From Thermoplasmata archaeon (GTDB taxonomy: Archaea; Thermoplasmatota; Thermoplasmata; Lutacidiplasmatales; UBA184): 64,000 nt of DNA. The translations under genes were made by a program, and so were the position numbers. Below the pieces are notes generated by a model. The model was not told where the DNA came from. It did no database searches and was given only the letters and a program-made list of their open reading frames with translations. This document shows, one piece after another, positions 3,406 to 11,574 of the stretch; position 1 is the first letter of the stretch; each line of letters begins with the position of its first letter. Where the stretch lies: assembly GCA_050013595.1 (NCBI GenBank), contig JBEKEY010000001.1, forward strand, positions 10,044 through 74,043, in the 5' to 3' direction.

Positions 3406-3480
3406 CGGTCCACGTTCCATCCACCGCCGGGAACTGGCGCGAAAAGTATCCCCCTCCCCTCCTCGACCGCGGAGGGTTGT

Positions 3481-5745
3481 GTGACGGGATCGGGCGGCTC
3501 GCGAGCGGCACCCTTGCTTCCGCTCGCGGTGGATTCGATACTCCTGGCCGGGATGCTTTTCGCGACCGTCGCTCATTCGGGGGCTCCGGTCACCTCGACC
3601 TCGCTCGCGAACGCCGTCACGCATTCGTCGGTCGTCGCTTCGGGAGTGGACCTCGCCGTCGACCCACCCTCCTACTGGATGCGGAGCGGAACGAACGTCA
3701 CGCTCGAGGCCGTCTGGACCTCGGGCTCTCCGTTGTGTCGCGTCACTCCACTCTGGTATGGCTGGTCGGTGGATTCTGGCAACGCCACGGGATTCCTGAA
3801 CAACACGTCCGGCCCGTCCACGACGTTCATCGCGGATTCGTTCGACTCGGGAACGGTCCGAGCGGTGGCCCGGGCGGTGGCCGAGGTCGACTGCGGCGCG
3901 AACCAGACCGTGATCGACCGCACGAACGAGGCGAACCTCTCGGTCGTCGCACCGATATCGCTCTCCGGCATCGCGTTCGGTCCGAGCCCGCTCTTCCCCG
4001 GCGATTCGGGAAACCTCGACGGGACGATCGTTGGTGGCGACCCCCCCTACCGGTTGGACGTTTCCTGGGGCGATGGAACTCGCTCGCAGCTGCAACTTCC
4101 GGGCCCGGGCCCATTCTCGGCGAGCCACCAGTACCCGGCCGGCGAGTTCGTTCCTTCGGTTTCCGCAGGGGATGCGGACAGCGACCTTGTCAACGCATCC
4201 GTGGAAGAGACCGTTTCGGTCGGGAACGGTCTCGAGGTGGGAATTCTGCCGGCCCGCATCGGGGCCGAGGTCGGAGTCCCACTTCAGTTCACGGGCGTGG
4301 CCGAGGGTCCTTCGCAAGACCTGACCCCGCTGGTCGATTGTTCGAATGCCACCTTAGGCTCGGCCGAAACGACCGCGAACGCGACGGTGTTCTCCTGCAC
4401 GTTCACGTCACCGGGAACGGCGGAGGTCCTCTTCGGGGAGTTTTCCCATCGCCCCGGAGGACCATCGGCGAGCGTCGTTCTCTATGAGCCGGTGGTCGAC
4501 CCACCCACCGTGTCGATCGAACCCGTGGATTCGACCGCGGAGGCGGGTGGCGCGGACCCGATGCGGGTCGGTGTGTCGGGAGGCGTCATGCCGATCTCAC
4601 TCTCCTGGAACCTTTCCGGGAATCTCTCGAGCGGCCAGACGACCCTCTGGTCCGACGGGGACGGCGTCATCTCGCTCTCACTCCCGACGGCGGGCGATTA
4701 CGCAGTCGGGGTTCAGGCGAGCGATGCTCTCGGAGGCACCGACGCGAACGGAACGGGGGACTTACGAGTGGACGCGCCACTGAAGGCCAACGCCACCGGC
4801 GCGAGTATGCTCCTCACGGACGGCGCGTACGCCGAGGTCGGCGTCGACGCGCTTTCCGGGTGCCCGCCGTTCTCCTGGTGGGTAGTTCCCGACCTTCCTC
4901 CGTCCACCGGATCGGCCGGGGCCGGCGTCCTCGCGACCGTCGGTCAGTTCACCTGGAACGGGTCGTACGCCATCGAGGGCAATCTCACGTTCACGGCCGG
5001 GGTGACCGACGAATGCGGGGCCGCCTGGCAGACGGAATTCGAGATTTCGCTCGTCCCCAGACTGTCCGCCCTCGCAAGTGTGAAACCGGCGCCTTCTTCG
5101 TCCAACGAGACACTCGCAGTGAACCTGTCGATCCAGGGTGGCTTGCCACCCTATCGAGTTTCCGCGAATGCGAGCGACGGGGAATCCTGGAATCGGACCC
5201 TCCTTTCGGATGGCGCCTACGAATGGTTGCTCGCAACGGACGGGAACGGGTCCTTGCTGGTGGTCATTTCGGTAGCGGATTCTCTGGGCGACGTCGTAGC
5301 CACCAATCTCTCGGTGATTCTCGTTTCTCCGGTGCATCCAACCACACCCTCTCCTCCCGCAGAGCCTCCCCCGCCGTCGACCACCCCGGGCTCTCCGACT
5401 AACTCGTCGGACCCTTCACTGACCGACTCGAGCTGCATTCCGATCGCCGTGTTCTTGTTCGCAGTCGCTGCGGTAAGCGTGGTAGTGATCGGGTGGCGTC
5501 GGAGAACCCGAAACGGCTCTCGGGATGGGCCCGGGCCCGACCCGGTGGCGACACTTCGACGAATTATCGAACCGGCCGAGGGCGCGGAGCGATTCACCGT
5601 CGAACTCCTTGCGGAGGAAGCGGGGATTCCAATCACGGAAGTGCGCTCGACCATTGATCGATTGATCTCCGAAAGGAGGATTCGCTCCGAAAGCGGCGCT
5701 GACGGAGAGGAGGTGCTCTCGTGGTCGTCCGAAGCTGGTTCATAG
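3481..5745 (+). CDS. secreted PKD-repeat surface glycoprotein with C-terminal TM anchor and short cytoplasmic winged-helix-like tail
   Basis: GTG start followed by a signal peptide. A PKD signature is present (VSWGDGTRSQ...HQYPAGEF). There are dozens of N-x-S/T sequons and a Pro/Thr linker. The TM segment is IPIAVFLFAVAAVSVVVIGW, then an RRR stop-transfer. The cytoplasmic tail FTVELLAEEAGIPITEVRSTIDRLISERRIR resembles a wHTH. Confidence 0.75.
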   Translation: MTGSGGSRAAPLLPLAVDSILLAGMLFATVAHSGAPVTSTSLANAVTHSSVVASGVDLAVDPPSYWMRSGTNVTLEAVWTSGSPLCRVTPLWYGWSVDSGNATGFLNNTSGPSTTFIADSFDSGTVRAVARAVAEVDCGANQTVIDRTNEANLSVVAPISLSGIAFGPSPLFPGDSGNLDGTIVGGDPPYRLDVSWGDGTRSQLQLPGPGPFSASHQYPAGEFVPSVSAGDADSDLVNASVEETVSVGNGLEVGILPARIGAEVGVPLQFTGVAEGPSQDLTPLVDCSNATLGSAETTANATVFSCTFTSPGTAEVLFGEFSHRPGGPSASVVLYEPVVDPPTVSIEPVDSTAEAGGADPMRVGVSGGVMPISLSWNLSGNLSSGQTTLWSDGDGVISLSLPTAGDYAVGVQASDALGGTDANGTGDLRVDAPLKANATGASMLLTDGAYAEVGVDALSGCPPFSWWVVPDLPPSTGSAGAGVLATVGQFTWNGSYAIEGNLTFTAGVTDECGAAWQTEFEISLVPRLSALASVKPAPSSSNETLAVNLSIQGGLPPYRVSANASDGESWNRTLLSDGAYEWLLATDGNGSLLVVISVADSLGDVVATNLSVILVSPVHPTTPSPPAEPPPPSTTPGSPTNSSDPSLTDSSCIPIAVFLFAVAAVSVVVIGWRRRTRNGSRDGPGPDPVATLRRIIEPAEGAERFTVELLAEEAGIPITEVRSTIDRLISERRIRSESGADGEEVLSWSSEAGS

Positions 5746-6128
5746 TGGGCGGTCCTGGAATCCCGTCCGGTGGACACCGTGCTGTCGCCTTGCTCCTGGT
5801 CGCCCTGTCGGCCATCCCGATGCCGGGGATTCATGCCACGCTCCATCCGGCCGAGGTCACTCAGACTTTCTCCGCGACCCCTTCCACGCCCGTTAGCAAT
5901 TTTACGGCGTCGATCGATCGATTGGTCGACTTGGTGGCTTTTGCCGGTAGCGGAATCCTATCGCTCGTCTGGGCCCGGGTCGCGTTAAGCTGGTTTTCGA
6001 ACGATATCACGAAGAAGATCCAGGCTAAGGACCGCGCCCGGGACGCTCTCGTCGGTACGTTGCTGTTCATGGCAGCGGTCACCGGCCTCCTCTACGGGCT
6101 CGCCCATTGGGTTCTGACGGGCAGTTAG
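5721..6128 (+). CDS. small 2-TM pilin-like membrane protein (TrbC/VirB2-like or CedA1-like)
   Basis: Signal peptide (AVALLLVALSAIPMPGIHA) followed by two hydrophobic helices, the TrbC/VirB2 topology. Start is GTG 5721, or GTG 5745 overlapping the upstream stop. It is coupled to the following genes. Confidence 0.55.
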   Translation: MVVRSWFIVGGPGIPSGGHRAVALLLVALSAIPMPGIHATLHPAEVTQTFSATPSTPVSNFTASIDRLVDLVAFAGSGILSLVWARVALSWFSNDITKKIQAKDRARDALVGTLLFMAAVTGLLYGLAHWVLTGS

Positions 6129-6136
6129 AGGGACCC

Positions 6137-7270
6137 ATGCCGATTCCCTCCCTTGATCTGGGTGACCTCGTCCGGGCGATCCTGTTCGCGATCTTTGGGG
6201 ATCTCACCGCGGTCATCACGGCCATCATTGGACCAACGTACGACAATATTCTCGTCCCCGAGCTCCAGACCGGTGCGCTCTTTCCTTCTCTCTTCGGCCC
6301 GGGAACTGGAGGGGTGACCTATCTTTCCACGGCCGCGCGGTTCTCGGATTTCATCCTCTCGAATGTCGTGGATCCGGCAGTCGCCCTCGTCGCTCTCGGA
6401 GTCGCGATTCTCTACCTGTCTCGATCGGTCGTTACCCGGTGGGCGGACGGATTGGACGCACTCCTCCCTCGTCTGGTCCTCGGGGTTGTCGGGGCGAACT
6501 TCACCGTCCCGATCGCGGGTGCCATCCTGGGGGTAGCCGGAGGCCTTTACCCGGTGGTATCCGGCTGGGACGGAGGAACCTGGCAGCACTGGGTGAATCT
6601 CGCTGGCTGGGGACAGGTCGCGTTTTCGTGGGACAATGGGGCGCTCGCGTTCGTGCTATCGTTGGTCGAGTTCGCCGCCGTGTTCGCCCTCTTGCTTGCG
6701 GTGGGTATCCGGGACGCAGTTCTGGCGGTGTTGCTCGTCCTCCTGCCGATCTTCACCCTGTTGTGGCCGCTCCGCCCACTCTCCCCGCTGGCTCGGAGAG
6801 GATGGCTCCTCTTCGCCGAACTAGCGTTCCTGCCGTGCGTGCTCGTCATCCCTCTCGAACTCGCCGTCGCGAGCCCCAGTCCCGTCATGCTGGTCTCCTA
6901 CCTCGCCGTCGCGGTGGCCTCGCCGTTCTTCCTCTCGTTGGCCGGCACCAACCTGGTCTCCTTCGGTTTCGGCGGCGCGTCGAACGTCGTCCATTCTAAC
7001 GTCCAACGCGGGCTCGCGGTCGCCCCCTCCGCTGCCACGTCCTCGTTGGGACCTGTGGCGAACGGGGCTCGGTCGAGCGGTGCTGCCGGCCGCGCGCTCG
7101 CGGGAACGGCACGGGTCGCCGGATCAGCGGCGGCGCCGGCGGCCGCCCCGCTCGCCGTCGGTGAGTTGCTTGGCCAGGGAGCCTGGCATCTCATCGGGCA
7201 CCTCCGTCCCTCGTCAGAGAAGAACGGTCCCGGGGGTCAACCGCCCCTACGCAACGGAGGGTCGAAATGA
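6137..7270 (+). CDS. polytopic membrane protein, VirB6/TrbL/CedA-like
   Basis: About 377 aa with 6 or more predicted TM helices and a hydrophilic Ala/Gly/Ser-rich C-terminal tail. It lies between the pilin-like gene and the VirB4-like ATPase. ATG 6137 sits immediately after the upstream stop. Confidence 0.55.
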   Translation: MPIPSLDLGDLVRAILFAIFGDLTAVITAIIGPTYDNILVPELQTGALFPSLFGPGTGGVTYLSTAARFSDFILSNVVDPAVALVALGVAILYLSRSVVTRWADGLDALLPRLVLGVVGANFTVPIAGAILGVAGGLYPVVSGWDGGTWQHWVNLAGWGQVAFSWDNGALAFVLSLVEFAAVFALLLAVGIRDAVLAVLLVLLPIFTLLWPLRPLSPLARRGWLLFAELAFLPCVLVIPLELAVASPSPVMLVSYLAVAVASPFFLSLAGTNLVSFGFGGASNVVHSNVQRGLAVAPSAATSSLGPVANGARSSGAAGRALAGTARVAGSAAAPAAAPLAVGELLGQGAWHLIGHLRPSSEKNGPGGQPPLRNGGSK

Positions 7271-7271
7271 C

Positions 7272-8054
7272 ATGGCCGAACCCGAGGCCGGATCTCCTGT
7301 CATCGTGCTACCCGAACGGCTGGGCCGTCGAATGCGACTCGGACCGTTTCCGTCGTCCCGCGACGCCCTCAAGTTTGTCATCTACGCCGCCACCGGGGCC
7401 CTCTTGGCGTCGTTCACGAGCCCATGGTTGTGGCTACCGTTCGTACTGGTCGGATTCGCGGTCTCGGTCTGGCGCCCGGAGGGACGAGCGGTCGACGAGC
7501 GTCTCCTCGTCTTCGCAGTCTGGAGACTCCGGTCCTGGGGTCTAGGGAAGGCCGTGAAGAGCGCGAACTCCCGCCCGCTCGTTCGACAGGGACTCCTGCA
7601 GCTCGCGTCCCACCGATACGTGGCGGTCGTTCGTACCGGGGGTTCGCCGATGGCCTACCTGCCGCCGGACGAGTTGGCCCGACGCTTCGAACTCTATCGC
7701 GAATTGATTCGGTCCACGGAGGGAGGGTTCTCGTTGCTATCGACCGTGGTGCCGATCCGCTCCCAAACGGTTAGGCCCTCGACGACTCCGGGAGAGGGGC
7801 CCGAGGCGTCCGCCCGTGCAGGGTATTCCGAGCTGGTCCTCTTACTCTGCCGACGTCGGCTCCTGCGCCGGGTCTACTTCGTCCTCGGAGCTGTCGGAGC
7901 CAGCACGGACTCCGTCGCCTTACTCGAAGGACGGGTCGCGAGCTTGGTCGAGCGGCTGAGTTCTCTCGGCCTCCGACCGACACGACTTCGGGATCGTGCC
8001 CTGGCCGAAGCGGCCCACCGCTTTGGATGGGCGGCAGAGGTGACCCGCCAGTGA
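7272..8054 (+). CDS. membrane-anchored protein (2 N-terminal TM helices + cytoplasmic domain), possible VirB3/VirB4-N-domain-like component
   Basis: ATG 7272 lies 1 nt after the upstream stop. TM pair KFVIYAATGALLASF / WLWLPFVLVGFAVSVW followed by a 180-aa soluble domain. The stop overlaps the next start. Confidence 0.5.
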   Translation: MAEPEAGSPVIVLPERLGRRMRLGPFPSSRDALKFVIYAATGALLASFTSPWLWLPFVLVGFAVSVWRPEGRAVDERLLVFAVWRLRSWGLGKAVKSANSRPLVRQGLLQLASHRYVAVVRTGGSPMAYLPPDELARRFELYRELIRSTEGGFSLLSTVVPIRSQTVRPSTTPGEGPEASARAGYSELVLLLCRRRLLRRVYFVLGAVGASTDSVALLEGRVASLVERLSSLGLRPTRLRDRALAEAAHRFGWAAEVTRQ

Positions 8055-8425
8055 AAGACGATGTCAGGGTTACGCCCATCTTCGAGTTCGAGGCGTTCGG
8101 TGCGGCCGTCGGGTCGGCGGTTGTCTGCGGGGCACTTTCCTTGATCGTCCCGCTCCTCATTGCCCCTACGGCTACCCTTGTTTGCCTCGCACTCGCGGGA
8201 TGGGTTTCGACCAGCCGACGGCGAGGGCCACTCACCCTTAGCGGCCTCGGCAATTCCTCCCTCGCTGCACTCTGCGTTCTCGGCGGGTCCGCCGCAGGAT
8301 TCCTGACGGCTCCGTCGTTCCTGGCACCGTTCCGGGGCCTCCTCCTTGCAGGAGGATTGGTCCCCCTCTTCCTGGCCGAACGAACTCGCTCGATTCACCC
8401 CCTGCCGGTGTTCACCCGTTCATGA
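8051..8425 (+). CDS. small multi-TM membrane protein
   Basis: GTG 8051 overlaps the upstream TGA (GTGA). Hydrophobic segments run throughout. The stop overlaps the ATPase start (ATGA at 8422). Confidence 0.5.
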   Translation: MKDDVRVTPIFEFEAFGAAVGSAVVCGALSLIVPLLIAPTATLVCLALAGWVSTSRRRGPLTLSGLGNSSLAALCVLGGSAAGFLTAPSFLAPFRGLLLAGGLVPLFLAERTRSIHPLPVFTRS

Positions 8426-10116
8426 CGGCACCGACAAGCCCCCCGGCTCCGGTCGAGGCTCCTACGTGGTGGCGAGTCGGACGAAGCTACCGCGCTCCGC
8501 TCTTCATCCGACAGTTTCCGCCGGAAGTCCCCTTCGGGTTCCTCGGTCGGATCTTGCCGACGAGCGAGACCCTGGAGCTGTCGGTCGAGGCTCACCGGAT
8601 CCCTTCTTCGAACGCCCTCGAAATGCTGCACGGGGCGCGAGCCGTCGCGGAGGCGGAGCTCGCCAGCGGCGGGAACGGGGGACAGACCGCTGAGCTCGAG
8701 GTCGAGCGTGCAAGCGCGGAGGACTTAGGTCATGCCATCGCCCGGCGAACTCAGGAGCTATGGAAGGTGGGTATCCGCTTCGTTGCCTTGGGTCCCACTC
8801 GACCCCACGTCGAGGCGAAGAGGACGCGGCTTTCCGAGCGACTCTCGGCCATCGGATTCCGGTTGCGGATACCTCGGTACGAGGTTCGAGAAGCGCTTCT
8901 CCCGGCGGATCTCTCTGCGTCCGAACCCCGCCCCGACGGGTACTGGCATACGTTGCCCACCGACGGACTCGCCGCCCTCTTCCCGTTCGGGGACGAGACG
9001 CTCTTGGAATCCGGAGGCGTTCTGCTCGGACTCGCGCTTTCCGACGCGAGCCCGGTGTTCGTCGATCGGTGGTCGCACGCGAGCCACTCCTGGGGGATCT
9101 TCGGGACCACGGGTGCCGGCAAATCGTTCGCCGCGGCGTTGACCCTCCTACGGACTCGCTGGCAACGACCCGAAGTGTCGATCGCCATCCTGGACCCGCT
9201 CGGGGAGTATTCCGCCCTAGTCGAGGCCCTGGGAGGCTCTGTCATCCGAGTCGCGGACGGGGCCGGCGGCCGGCTCAACCCGCTCGATCCCGTGACCACC
9301 CGTGGGGATCGACGGGAGAAAGCGGCACGGGTCGGAACGATGCTACGCGCCCTCTTTCCGAGCCTTCGCGACGAGGAGGCGGCCGAACTGGATGCGGCCG
9401 TGACACAGCTCTACGACCGGGGTCCCGAGGTGCCGACCTTTCGTGACCTACGAGAAAGGGTGGTCCAACGGACCGGGGCGTCGACTCGACTATCCACCTT
9501 GCTCGAGGTGTTCCAATCGGGCTCCCTCAGGGCTCTCGACGGATTGACGACCGCCCGACCCACCGAGAGGGTCGTATCGGTCGATTTCGAAGGGGTCCCC
9601 GATGACCAGTTGCCGTTCCACCTCACCTACGTCCTCGATTGGGCCTACGGACGACTCGCCGACCGCCAGGGCGGAAAGCTGCTCTTGATCGACGAGGCAC
9701 ACCTTCTCGCGCGCCACGCAGCCACCGAAGAGTTCCTCGACCGTGTCGTGCGCCACGTTCGACACTTCGAGGCAGGTCTGCTGATCCTATCTCAGAGCCC
9801 GGAGGACTTCCTGGTTCGCCCGGCCGGTCGGTCCCTTCTGAGGAATCTATACGCTACCGGGTTCCTGCGTCTGCCCGAAGTATCCTCGGAGGCTCGTGCG
9901 TTCTTTGCCCTCACGGGCGCGGAAGCCGAATGGCTCCCTCGGGCCCGTCTTCCGCGGGAGACCGGCTACTCCGAATCGCTCTGGCGCTTCGGGGAACTTC
10001 ATCTTCCGCTTGCCATCGTCGCGTCGACCCCCGAGTACGAATTCCTCGGAGCGACATTGGGCCGTCACCGAGCGGCCGCAGACGAATTGAGTGCCGCTCC
10101 AAAGCGAGGTTTATAG
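8422..10116 (+). CDS. VirB4/TrbE/CagE/CedB-family transfer ATPase
   Basis: 564 aa. Walker A is GIFGTTGAGKSFAA and Walker B is KLLLIDEAHLLA. Overall layout resembles VirB4-like ATPases. It is translationally coupled to the upstream membrane genes. Confidence 0.85.
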   Translation: MTAPTSPPAPVEAPTWWRVGRSYRAPLFIRQFPPEVPFGFLGRILPTSETLELSVEAHRIPSSNALEMLHGARAVAEAELASGGNGGQTAELEVERASAEDLGHAIARRTQELWKVGIRFVALGPTRPHVEAKRTRLSERLSAIGFRLRIPRYEVREALLPADLSASEPRPDGYWHTLPTDGLAALFPFGDETLLESGGVLLGLALSDASPVFVDRWSHASHSWGIFGTTGAGKSFAAALTLLRTRWQRPEVSIAILDPLGEYSALVEALGGSVIRVADGAGGRLNPLDPVTTRGDRREKAARVGTMLRALFPSLRDEEAAELDAAVTQLYDRGPEVPTFRDLRERVVQRTGASTRLSTLLEVFQSGSLRALDGLTTARPTERVVSVDFEGVPDDQLPFHLTYVLDWAYGRLADRQGGKLLLIDEAHLLARHAATEEFLDRVVRHVRHFEAGLLILSQSPEDFLVRPAGRSLLRNLYATGFLRLPEVSSEARAFFALTGAEAEWLPRARLPRETGYSESLWRFGELHLPLAIVASTPEYEFLGATLGRHRAAADELSAAPKRGL

Positions 10117-10140: not shown

Positions 10141-10638
10141 GTGGGCGCGGAGGCGACAGCTGATGGTCCGCCCCGCCGCCGAACGAGCTGGAGCCTGAAG
10201 ACGATCGTCGAGGACGTCGCCGGTCGACCGATCGGCGAGCTTCAGGACCCCGCACGACCGGTTCATCCGTATCTCAAGGGCAGGGACATTGGAATTCGGG
10301 GCGAATCGCCCGCTCCCCCACGGCCGTTGGTTGAGGCGTACGACCCGGTCGATCATCTGTATCCTCCCCTAATCGGCTCGGCCGCCCGCGCATTCCACGG
10401 ACCGGATCACGAGAACCACGCCGAAACCCTCGACCGGCACCGTCCACTCCCCGGCCACATTCCGGGGCCATCCCACCGACCGGAGCGGCTCTACCTGCAT
10501 TACTTGCTGCTGCACATGGACCGGTTGAGCGGGTCGGCGCTACGCTATCTCAAGCTCGCCGTCGACGAGGAACTCGCCCACCGCGCCGAGCCCCCGCCCT
10601 TGCCCTCCGAGAGCTCACATTCCAAGCCACCCTCCTGA
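10141..10638 (+). CDS. hypothetical protein (weak)
   Basis: 165-aa ORF with high GC3 and no recognisable domain. Alternative antisense ORFs exist, so the strand call is uncertain. Confidence 0.25.
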   Translation: MGAEATADGPPRRRTSWSLKTIVEDVAGRPIGELQDPARPVHPYLKGRDIGIRGESPAPPRPLVEAYDPVDHLYPPLIGSAARAFHGPDHENHAETLDRHRPLPGHIPGPSHRPERLYLHYLLLHMDRLSGSALRYLKLAVDEELAHRAEPPPLPSESSHSKPPS

Positions 10639-10786: not shown

Positions 10787-11224
10787 ATGCAGCATGTCAC
10801 GATCCCCCGAATTCACTGCTACCGTTGCGTCTACACGTGGACGCCGGTCAAGACGCCGGTCCGCATGTGCCCCCGTTGCAAGTCGACGTTGTGGGACGTT
10901 CCCAAGATCCGACCCGTGAAGTTCGGGGACGGTCTCGGAATCGAGGAGATTCTCACGCCCCACCTCGACGAGATCCGGCGGCTCGCGAGGAAGCACGGCG
11001 CGGAGCGAATCATGGTGTTCGGGTCGGTGCGCCGGCGAGAAGCTACCGAGAAGAGCGATGTCGACCTGATGGTCCGATGGAAGCGGCCGGTATCTTTGCT
11101 CGACCGTGCCGGGCTCCGGACCGATCTCGAGAAGGCCCTAGGCCGTTCCGTGGACCTCGTTAACGAGGGAGGGCTTCACTGGGCAATCCAACCGCAAATC
11201 GAGGCGGAGGCGGTGTTACTCTGA
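10787..11224 (+). CDS. mntA: minimal nucleotidyltransferase (MNT) with N-terminal zinc ribbon, putative antitoxin/AMPylase of HEPN-MNT module
   Basis: N-terminal CYRC...CPRC pair. Carries the GS-x(n)-DxD motif (GSVRRREATEKSDVDLMV) of the pol-beta NTase superfamily. Confidence 0.8.
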   Translation: MQHVTIPRIHCYRCVYTWTPVKTPVRMCPRCKSTLWDVPKIRPVKFGDGLGIEEILTPHLDEIRRLARKHGAERIMVFGSVRRREATEKSDVDLMVRWKRPVSLLDRAGLRTDLEKALGRSVDLVNEGGLHWAIQPQIEAEAVLL

Positions 11225-11253: not shown

Positions 11254-11574
11254 GTGGATGAGATGCTCCGCCATCTGGAGGTCCTTGCCTCCGTCGTCCG
11301 CAATGGGAAGGCCGCCCTGAGCTCGGACGCCCTGAATCGGTATGCCGGGGAACACGCTACGGAGTTGCTCGCCGAGGCCGCAGAGAAGACCAGTCACGCA
11401 TTCAAGACCGCCAATCCAGGGATGCCCTGGGACCGACTTCACCCGCTCCGTCACGACGTCGCGCACCCGTACGACCTCGGCGCGGAACCGGTTAACATCA
11501 ACCAACTTTGGGTGTTCGCGACGAAGGACGCCCCGCGGATTTCCCGACGTCTTAGGGACGCCAGGTTCCCATAG
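11254..11574 (+). CDS. hepT: HepT/DUF86 HEPN-domain toxin-like protein
   Basis: R-x4-H-x-Y motif (LRHDVAHPY) in the expected C-terminal position. It lies 30 bp downstream of the MNT gene. GTG start as reported by the ORF track. Confidence 0.75.
   Translation: MDEMLRHLEVLASVVRNGKAALSSDALNRYAGEHATELLAEAAEKTSHAFKTANPGMPWDRLHPLRHDVAHPYDLGAEPVNINQLWVFATKDAPRISRRLRDARFP

Follow-up and report, generated by a model that had tools for sequence, protein, structure and literature searches.

A glycosylated Ig-like membrane protein with a cytoplasmic winged helix is a candidate subunit of a chromosomally fixed T4SS-like apparatus in Thermoplasmata

We analyzed the first gene of an operon resembling a type IV secretion system (T4SS) in a Thermoplasmata archaeon of the UBA184 lineage, using a 64,000-nucleotide stretch of contig JBEKEY010000001.1 (positions 10,044 to 74,043 of the forward strand; hereafter, the window). 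Its product, which we call the Ig-wHTH protein, joins a row of immunoglobulin (Ig)-like domains to a winged helix-turn-helix (wHTH) domain through a single transmembrane (TM) helix. We propose, at roughly even confidence, that it is an accessory subunit of a minimal, chromosomally fixed T4SS-like apparatus of a soil Thermoplasmata clade, whose other parts would be a VirB4 ATPase, a PrgI/VirB3-like protein, a VirB6-like channel and a T4SS pilin. As a type I membrane protein it would expose at the cell surface a rod of six heavily N-glycosylated Ig-like domains, borne on a flexible Pro/Ser/Thr stalk; the rod most likely spans or passes the envelope and either contacts a partner cell or guides the pilus. 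Some 13 residues beneath the membrane, its 65-aa winged helix would bind either the DNA substrate or the machine itself from the cytoplasmic side, at the ATPase or the PrgI-like protein; this docking would couple the surface module to the translocon. The literature on the Ced system expects archaeal T4SS-like systems to contain undiscovered components that interact with the envelope or S-layer (PMC11823120).

Hydropathy and AlphaFold2 (AF2) models agree with the original prediction, made from the DNA letters and their translations, of a 754-aa reading frame with a signal peptide, seen here as an N-terminal hydrophobic segment, a single C-terminal TM helix and a tail of ~80 aa, which measures 82 aa. 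The gene and the parts of its product are laid out as follows.

3481..5745, + strand: gene of the Ig-wHTH glycoprotein, first of the operon (GTG start, 754 aa)
3514..3570, + strand: N-terminal hydrophobic helix, aa 12-30 (hydropathy, AF2 helix 12-30, family alignment)
3649..5322, + strand: ectodomain of six tandem beta-sandwich (Ig/PKD/He_PIG-like) domains (AF2, pLDDT 80-95)
5323..5433, + strand: disordered Pro/Ser/Thr-rich stalk, aa 615-651 (pLDDT <50; conservation 0.44)
5434..5496, + strand: single TM helix, aa 652-672 (hydropathy peak 2.9; AF2 helix 652-678)
5497..5535, + strand: Arg-rich juxtamembrane linker RRRTRNGSRDGPG (sequence, alignment)
5536..5730, + strand: cytoplasmic wHTH domain, aa 686-750 (AF2, Foldseek, conservation)

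By the positive-inside rule, the Arg-rich linker puts the tail on the cytoplasmic side. An overlap between the stop codon and the start of the next gene, also predicted, amounts to 25 nt (next start at 5721) and is kept in homologous loci; across all forms of the gene, including the short forms described below, it spans 4-28 nt. This frame overlap with the pilin-like gene suggests translational coupling and fits stoichiometric co-production of the two proteins.

The tail, described in the original prediction as wHTH-like, is a canonical winged helix by both AF2 and Foldseek and not a disordered segment. A tail-only AF2 model based on a 26-sequence alignment (core pLDDT >90) has the order H1-b1-H2-H3-b2-wing-b3 (helix 16-24, a short strand, helices 32-41 and 46-58, hairpin 62-66/72-76). 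All of the top 50 Foldseek matches in the PDB are winged helices (TMq 0.45-0.66), among them BlaI, Fur/Zur, MarR, Rpc34, STIV F93, cullin WHB, ORC2 and histone H1. When 1.84 billion cluster representatives were searched with a tail profile in HMMER, nearly all of the 182 matches fell at the C-terminal ends of family members 650-770 aa long; the remainder comprised a 500-590-aa subfamily with a shorter Ig array, a 113-156-aa set and a few unrelated bacterial tandem-wHTH proteins. Since the matches are almost confined to the Ig-wHTH family, the tail represents a new, narrowly distributed domain family. Unrelated proteins matching the profile (P0180, P0200, P0196 and P0183; E 1e-10 to 1e-6) carry four to six tandem wHTH-like modules, followed in P0180 and P0200 by repeats that look like NHL/beta-propellers.

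Neither the protein family nor its tail domain is annotated. A word-indexed search found 57 homologs, all unnamed or hypothetical proteins of Thermoplasmata metagenome-assembled genomes (MAGs), and an identical protein (P0001) occurs on a 277-kb metagenome contig. Our literature search found no description of the operon or of the Ig-wHTH protein in Thermoplasmata; one paper mentions in passing a VirB4 gene in 'E-plasma'.

The winged helix is the best-conserved part of the protein, with a mean consensus identity of 0.81 compared to 0.59-0.66 for the six Ig-like domains, 0.44 for the linker and 0.42 for the TM helix. Pairwise identities of the tail are 51-95% where those of the ectodomain are 30-92%, homologs with only 30-34% ectodomain identity to the query keep 52-71% in the tail, and the tail is exactly 82 aa long in all closer relatives. 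No other operon product evolves as fast as the Ig-wHTH protein among the divergent loci: its identities are 27-60%, whereas the ATPase keeps 61-88%, the VirB6-like protein 55-84% and the pilin-like protein 60-86%. Nearly all of this divergence sits in the ectodomain. Ectodomain size varies as well: subfamilies of ~580 aa and ~720-755 aa exist, and the ~580-aa proteins fill the same operon slot. In one Thermoplasmata sub-lineage this slot holds a soluble protein of 113-156 aa that consists of an Arg-rich N-terminal region and the wHTH, without TM helix or ectodomain, while the rest of the operon is intact. These short forms are found at four loci.

L051, 7884-8225: short form, rest of operon intact
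L057, 7001-7471: short form, rest of operon intact
L058, 5872-6342: short form, rest of operon intact
L059, 1500-1901: short form, rest of operon intact

The L057 and L058 short forms belong to a 615-kb contig. In a neighbor-joining tree of the VirB6-like protein the L051 locus is nested within a clade of long-form lineages, indicating that the short form arose by secondary loss of the ectodomain and TM helix. Being best conserved and retained after this loss, the winged helix emerges as the part that the system cannot do without, and the Ig-like rod as a variable, lineage-specific and dispensable surface module. The original prediction had offered two roles, an adhesin or mating component and a membrane-tethered regulator. 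Because the ectodomain was lost while the operon stayed intact, adhesion or recognition cannot be the whole function; the choice between adhesin and regulator is not settled computationally.

The operon is inherited with the chromosome. We compared three metagenome contigs, 49 GTDB species-representative loci and further contigs in a tblastn synteny table, and wherever the contig extends far enough (>50 loci) the gene order is identical: DUF885, RidA, fibrillarin, Ig-wHTH, pilin-like, VirB6-like, PrgI-like, small TM, VirB4 and 165-aa protein, with an N6/N4 methylase, an orotidine monophosphate decarboxylase and a pseudouridine synthase as the usual 3' flank. DUF885 lies upstream on the - strand, and the operon genes share one strand with overlapping or abutting frames. 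The fibrillarin gene identifies the host as an archaeon. This synteny holds over Ig-wHTH identities of 27-91% and in loci that include a 1.8-Mb contig and a 2.2-Mb chromosome; the named sources are all Thermoplasmata MAGs, UBA184 included, many of them soil-derived. The scanned open reading frames (ORFs) of the window include no integrase, relaxase or coupling ATPase (type IV coupling protein, T4CP/VirD4), and the remainder is ordinary metabolism. Housekeeping flanks shared by more than 50 loci, together with the lack of an integrase, point to a chromosomal, vertically inherited, domesticated T4SS-like system. The predicted linkage of the gene to a VirB4-containing transfer operon was thus borne out in every long-enough contig, homologs co-occurring with VirB4-like genes in the same order at more than 50 loci, but the operon is not a mobile element: the flanks conserved in more than 50 genomes and the absence of integrase, relaxase and T4CP from the window rule that reading out. 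Two loci of bacterial bins, L052 (CAWJHI010000091.1, 'Terriglobia') and L048 (DAIDCO010000087.1, 'bacterium'), also contain the archaeal operon, L052 together with an archaeal fibrillarin; both appear to result from wrong binning or chimeric assembly of public MAGs. L052 was discarded as a distant homolog, its contig being chimeric and frameshifted with unrelated genes in the second half.

Downstream of the Ig-wHTH gene, the operon comprises five further genes, and the gene of a 165-aa protein is usually adjacent to it.

5721..6128, + strand: T4SS-pilin-like protein, 135 aa (signal-like segment, two hydrophobic helices, basic loop)
6137..7270, + strand: polytopic membrane protein, 377 aa (at least six hydrophobic segments, conserved synteny)
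7272..8054, + strand: PrgI/VirB3-like protein, 260 aa, with a hydrophobic hairpin region (weak Pfam matches, topology)
8027..8425, + strand: small 3-TM membrane protein, 124-132 aa (topology, synteny)
8422..10116, + strand: VirB4-family ATPase, 564 aa (PDB, NCBIfam, Pfam)
10141..10638, + strand: conserved soluble protein, 165 aa (59-94% identity across loci, follows VirB4 in nearly all)

The ATPase matches VirB4 in the PDB (4AG5, E 1.5e-13) and, in NCBIfam, conju_CD1110 VirB4-like proteins (E 2.1e-41), the VirB4 of Mycoplasma integrative and conjugative elements (ICEs; VirB4_plasma, 3.3e-28), VirB4_CagE (1.4e-12), CedD (1e-10) and TraC; its Pfam matches are DUF87 and the TraG P-loop. Since the match covers the VirB4 model only from position 204 of 752 onward, the 564-aa ORF lacks the N-terminal part of VirB4. 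The VirB4 function may be split, with the 260-aa PrgI/VirB3-like protein, encoded two genes upstream, supplying the membrane anchor and N-terminal domain. Weak but recurrent and specific Pfam matches connect the 260-aa family to PF12666 PrgI, the monoderm VirB3 (7 of 32 members, best E 0.0081), and the pilin-like family to PF18895 T4SS_pilin (15 of 38 members, best E 0.0027). In the library scans, neither the 377-aa protein nor the 165-aa protein matched a family; the former is VirB6-like by position and topology only, and the latter is possibly one more cytoplasmic component. When the pilin-like, VirB6-like and 260-aa proteins were compared with all PDB chains, as single sequences and as profiles of 4 and of 32-38 sequences, no meaningful match resulted, which means that homology to CedA1, TedC, VirB2, VirB6 and VirB3 is not demonstrable by sequence search. 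From its gene content, the cluster looks like a minimal T4SS of the MPF-FATA type, the class of monoderm bacteria and archaeal plasmids (PMC12102498).

Two variations occur at the 3' end of the operon. The 165-aa gene is displaced by ~1.1 kb in three loci, and in L003 a glutamine amidotransferase gene intervenes. Just 3' of the operon in the window lies a toxin-antitoxin-type pair, an MNT nucleotidyltransferase (NTP_transf_2; 10787-11224) and a HepT-like RNase (11254-11574), at a site where most related loci have an N6/N4 DNA methyltransferase instead.

The full-length AF2 model (34-sequence alignment; mean pLDDT 81) resolves the ectodomain into six domains (aa 57-157, 160-247, 252-339, 343-431, 435-523 and 529-614), preceded by a disordered stretch at aa 31-52 that separates the N-terminal helix from the first beta-sandwich. 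The PKD assignment of the original prediction needed qualification. The protein's own Pfam match to PKD (PF00801; aa 372-422) is below threshold (13.8 bits against a gathering cut-off of 23.5, E 0.061) and there are six domains rather than one or two, but the fold, a PKD-type motif in domain 2 (W196-G-D-G199) that is nearly invariant in the family alignment, and PKD matches in 18 of the 34 homologs at E <= 0.1 (best 1.2e-6) uphold it at the family level. Other homologs match Big_13, SprB, Ig_3 and He_PIG in Pfam, and a GG-x-PP-Y/F motif recurs in domains 2, 4, 5 and 6. Three conserved Cys pairs, in domains 1, 3 and 5, are seen in the homolog alignment. Lys is nearly missing throughout the family (0-7 per ~750 aa). 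A match of aa 172-236 (3994-4188) to PamR, an RbmA-like protein of a Patescibacteria/CPR pilus system (NCBIfam E 1.2e-10, 40.8 bits against a cut-off of 300), was rejected as an assignment; it probably reflects a common Ig/PKD- or FnIII-type repeat and not membership.

N-glycosylation of the rod is predicted from its sequons. The original prediction counted more than 40, which overstated them: there are 23 N-X-S/T sequons, 21 in the ectodomain and one each in the linker and the cytoplasmic tail. The enrichment nevertheless holds, since shuffled residues give 5.0 +/- 2.0 (maximum 13), about nine standard deviations lower, and 23 of the 27 Asn of the 754-aa protein lie inside sequons. The 34 homologs average 20.5 sequons, with ~80% of Asn in sequons and 15 conserved sequon columns. 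This excess over shuffles is a real signature of selection for N-glycosylation.

Foldseek matches of the full model in the PDB are generic multi-Ig arrays (titin, RPTP-sigma, DSCAM, alpha-2-macroglobulin MG domains), and in the model the ectodomain is an Ig-like rod without a specific functional match. The Haloferax S-layer protein 7PTP is among these matches (rank 37, E 3.7e-12). The six Ig-like domains, Thr/Ser/Pro-rich stalk, C-terminal anchor and heavy predicted N-glycosylation likewise resemble archaeal S-layer glycoproteins, yet the idea that the protein is a generic surface glycoprotein beside T4SS-like genes, with the tail as a mere cytoplasmic anchor, is very improbable and essentially excluded by the synteny and conservation data: the synteny is universal, the frame overlaps that of the pilin gene, and the tail is the best-conserved part, survives as a standalone gene after ectodomain loss and is almost confined to this operon.

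The reading as an accessory subunit thus turns on what the winged helix binds. The domain is acidic (pI 4.3-4.5, net charge -6 to -7), which weakly disfavors DNA binding and fits docking on a protein better than a classical repressor. The wing tip is also acidic, with a nearly invariant G-x-D-G-E-E, and within the wHTH variation peaks at the first turn of the recognition helix. R32 and R55 are conserved; R50 is kept in long forms and lost in short forms. No dimerization module is present. We lean toward protein binding on the basis of the acidity, the near-invariant wing, the variable recognition-helix turn and the loss of R50, a pattern that may partly reflect structural conservation.

Several observations weigh against the accessory-subunit reading. 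By sequence, the tail is closest to the wHTHs of DNA-binding transcription factors (PdhR/GntR at E 0.0048, then Lrp-, MarR- and Rrf2-like), and a wHTH protein encoded by the first gene, next to an upstream dyad-like element, suits an autoregulator equally well. As the window holds no coupling ATPase or relaxase, DNA transfer is itself an assumption. No significant sequence match backs a kinship of the pilin-like protein with VirB2 or of the VirB6-like protein with VirB6, and the loss of the ectodomain in one lineage makes the surface module dispensable for the task of the system there.

A possible though clearly less probable explanation is that the protein is a membrane-tethered regulator controlling its own T4SS-like operon, its wHTH binding a conserved element just 5' of the TATA box. 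The ectodomain of long forms would sense cell-cell contact or the state of the envelope and modulate DNA binding by the tail, either at the membrane (as ToxR does) or once the tail has been released by proteolysis; in short forms the wHTH would be an ordinary soluble regulator, and such soluble standalone variants do exist. Sequence relationships of the tail are in line with this reading. The tail alone matches Rrf2 in Pfam (E 0.044; 14.4 bits against a cut-off of 30), and a tail profile searched against the PDB finds PdhR/GntR first (E 0.0048), followed by Lrp-like, ZitR/MarR, NsrR/Rrf2 and CodY. Family-wise Pfam scans of the 34 homologs give Rrf2 in 18 (best 7.9e-4), GntR at best 1.8e-3, and also MarR, HTH_24 and Lrp-like matches. 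All of these matches to transcription-factor families lie below the curated cut-offs and are suggestive at most; the scans of the protein, the tail and the family members gave no match to the OmpR family (Trans_reg_C). The position of the Ig-wHTH gene at the head of the operon would also suit a regulator, as would a conserved block upstream of it.

3414..3451, + strand: promoter-proximal block GTTCCATCC-ACCGCCGGGAACTGGCG, then BRE/TATA-like GAAAAGTAT, directly after the fibrillarin stop codon

The GTTCCATCC-ACCGCCGGGAACTGGCG block holds an imperfect dyad, CGCCGG-N3-CTGGCG. Ten close loci have invariant columns over CCGCCGGG..CTGGCG and AA.TA, and divergent and short-form loci have a recognizable TTCAYC...CCGGGnGCTG version followed by a TA-rich box, so an imperfect dyad, summarized as TTCAYC...CCGCCGGGnnCTGGCG, stands beside a TATA-like box in all clades. 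The window contains a single exact copy of the motif, loose matches to it are at chance level and the strict motif is confined to the close clade; the block is therefore no evidence for the identity of a binder, and it is a candidate operator or promoter element that could instead be a basal promoter element or the 3' end of fibrillarin. A regulator also fits poorly with the strongly acidic domain and wing tip, the missing dimerization module, the variability of the recognition-helix turn and the loss of R50 in short forms, and translational coupling of a regulator to an abundant pilin would be unusual.

The wHTH could instead act as a receptor for the DNA substrate, an unlikely alternative in which it holds the transported DNA (single-stranded, double-stranded or a specific sequence) at the membrane by the VirB4/VirB6-like channel and stands in for the missing coupling protein or a relaxosome accessory factor. 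In this it would resemble two winged helices that direct DNA translocases, the C-terminal gamma domain of FtsK/SpoIIIE and that of Streptomyces TraB. The confident wHTH fold, its position directly at the membrane with an Arg-rich juxtamembrane segment, and the lack of a T4CP or relaxase in the operon or the scanned ORFs of the window are consistent with such a role, and how the DNA substrate of Ced and Ted originates and is recruited is an admitted gap (PMC9905601). The acidic wing and net negative charge, however, speak against non-specific DNA binding. Kinship of the tail with FtsK-gamma was rejected, leaving a functional analogy only: hhalign gives a probability of 9.5% against the E. coli domain, FtsK-gamma is not among the top 50 structural matches, and the protein has no motor domain.

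An equally doubtful possibility is a contact-sensing transducer, in which the glycosylated Ig rod recognizes a partner cell and the winged helix, membrane-bound or released, switches on or gates a domesticated conjugation-like machine for DNA exchange. If true, the protein would couple recognition between cells to DNA transfer from the outside in, through a topology without a described precedent among prokaryotic wHTH regulators.

A putative ribosome-binding site precedes the Ig-wHTH gene, and the nature of the N-terminal helix of its product allows two readings.

3468..3473, + strand: Shine-Dalgarno-like GGAGGG, 7 nt 5' of the GTG (read from the sequence)

The position of this GGGTGGT/GGAGGG site is kept across homologous loci in the alignment. 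The helix at aa 12-30 would be either a Sec signal peptide, with a plausible predicted cleavage site after TVA/HSG, or an uncleaved anchor. Its conservation is unusually high for a signal peptide, and it has a conserved mid-helix Asp (AVDS; LAVDSxLL). It may be a second, uncleaved membrane anchor that contacts other membrane subunits.

Several known systems share features with the Ig-wHTH protein and its operon. The archaeal S-layer glycoprotein of Haloferax volcanii (csg, 7PTP) likewise has six Ig-like domains, a Ser/Thr/Pro-rich stalk, a C-terminal anchor and dense N-glycosylation, whereas the Ig-wHTH protein ends in a folded, conserved cytoplasmic domain in place of a lipid-anchored (PGF-CTERM-type) end and is encoded within a T4SS-like operon to which it is translationally coupled. 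ToxR, CadC and TcpP are single-pass proteins that also join an extracytoplasmic domain to a cytoplasmic winged helix. In those proteins an OmpR-type wHTH is N-terminal and cytoplasmic and the sensor C-terminal and periplasmic, while the Ig-wHTH protein has the predicted reverse arrangement (type I, C-terminal wHTH) and a tail that is acidic and not OmpR-like (weak GntR, Lrp, Rrf2 and MarR matches). The Ig-wHTH protein resembles FtsK/SpoIIIE gamma and TraB in its DNA-transport setting, in its membrane anchoring with a small wHTH at the very C-terminus, and in its wing pattern (G-h-h-S-E-x-G-x-x-G-x-E-V-L), but it is not fused to a motor ATPase and the profile comparison with FtsK-gamma is not significant (9.5%).

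The MPF-FATA systems (PMC12102498) resemble the Thermoplasmata operon in their CD1110-type VirB4 and, as far as weak family-level matches go, in a PrgI-like VirB3 and a PF18895-type pilin, and their PrgB-type adhesins are, like the Ig-wHTH protein, large repetitive surface proteins encoded with the machinery; by this likeness the Ig-wHTH protein could promote mating-pair formation. Unlike the Ig-wHTH protein, PrgB-type adhesins are anchored in the cell wall and have no cytoplasmic domain. The Thermoplasmata operon, moreover, lies outside any mobile element and without a T4CP or relaxase in its vicinity, and one lineage does without the surface module but retains the cytoplasmic domain.

The closest counterparts in genomic setting are Ced (Sulfolobales/Desulfurococcales) and Ted (Thermoproteales), domesticated chromosomal T4SS-like machines for DNA exchange in Crenarchaea (PMC9905601, PMC11868833, PMC11823120). 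Like them, the Thermoplasmata system is chromosomal and not borne on a plasmid or ICE, has a minimal gene set without a relaxase (here, within the scanned window), made up of a VirB4-like ATPase, a putative VirB6-like polytopic protein and a putative small pilin with two helices, and has a VirB4 that is apparently split or N-terminally truncated, as are CedB/CedD of Sulfolobales. It differs in belonging to another phylum (Thermoplasmatota), in having a PrgI/VirB3-like gene and in an ATPase closer to monoderm MPF-FATA VirB4 (conju_CD1110, E 2e-41) than to CedD (1e-10); import or export of DNA would here be an analogy. The authors of the Ced and Ted studies state that such domestication has not been reported elsewhere (PMC9905601). 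The Thermoplasmata locus would be a third, independent-looking example of a domesticated conjugation machine, in soil archaea, and, if this is true, the first domesticated T4SS-like system outside Crenarchaea. Neither Ced nor Ted has been described with a component combining an Ig ectodomain, a TM helix and a wHTH, and the terms 'winged', 'wHTH' and 'PKD' are absent from the text of the Ted paper. The tail domain family could mark such systems in metagenomes, and the lineages with the soluble wHTH alone are a natural 'experiment' pointing to the winged helix as the key piece. The components of Ced and Ted that interact with the envelope, and the route of DNA to the machine, are unknown to their authors (PMC11823120), and the Ig-wHTH protein is a candidate for the missing part, a single polypeptide that would link the cell exterior, across the envelope, to the side of the translocon that faces the cytoplasm.

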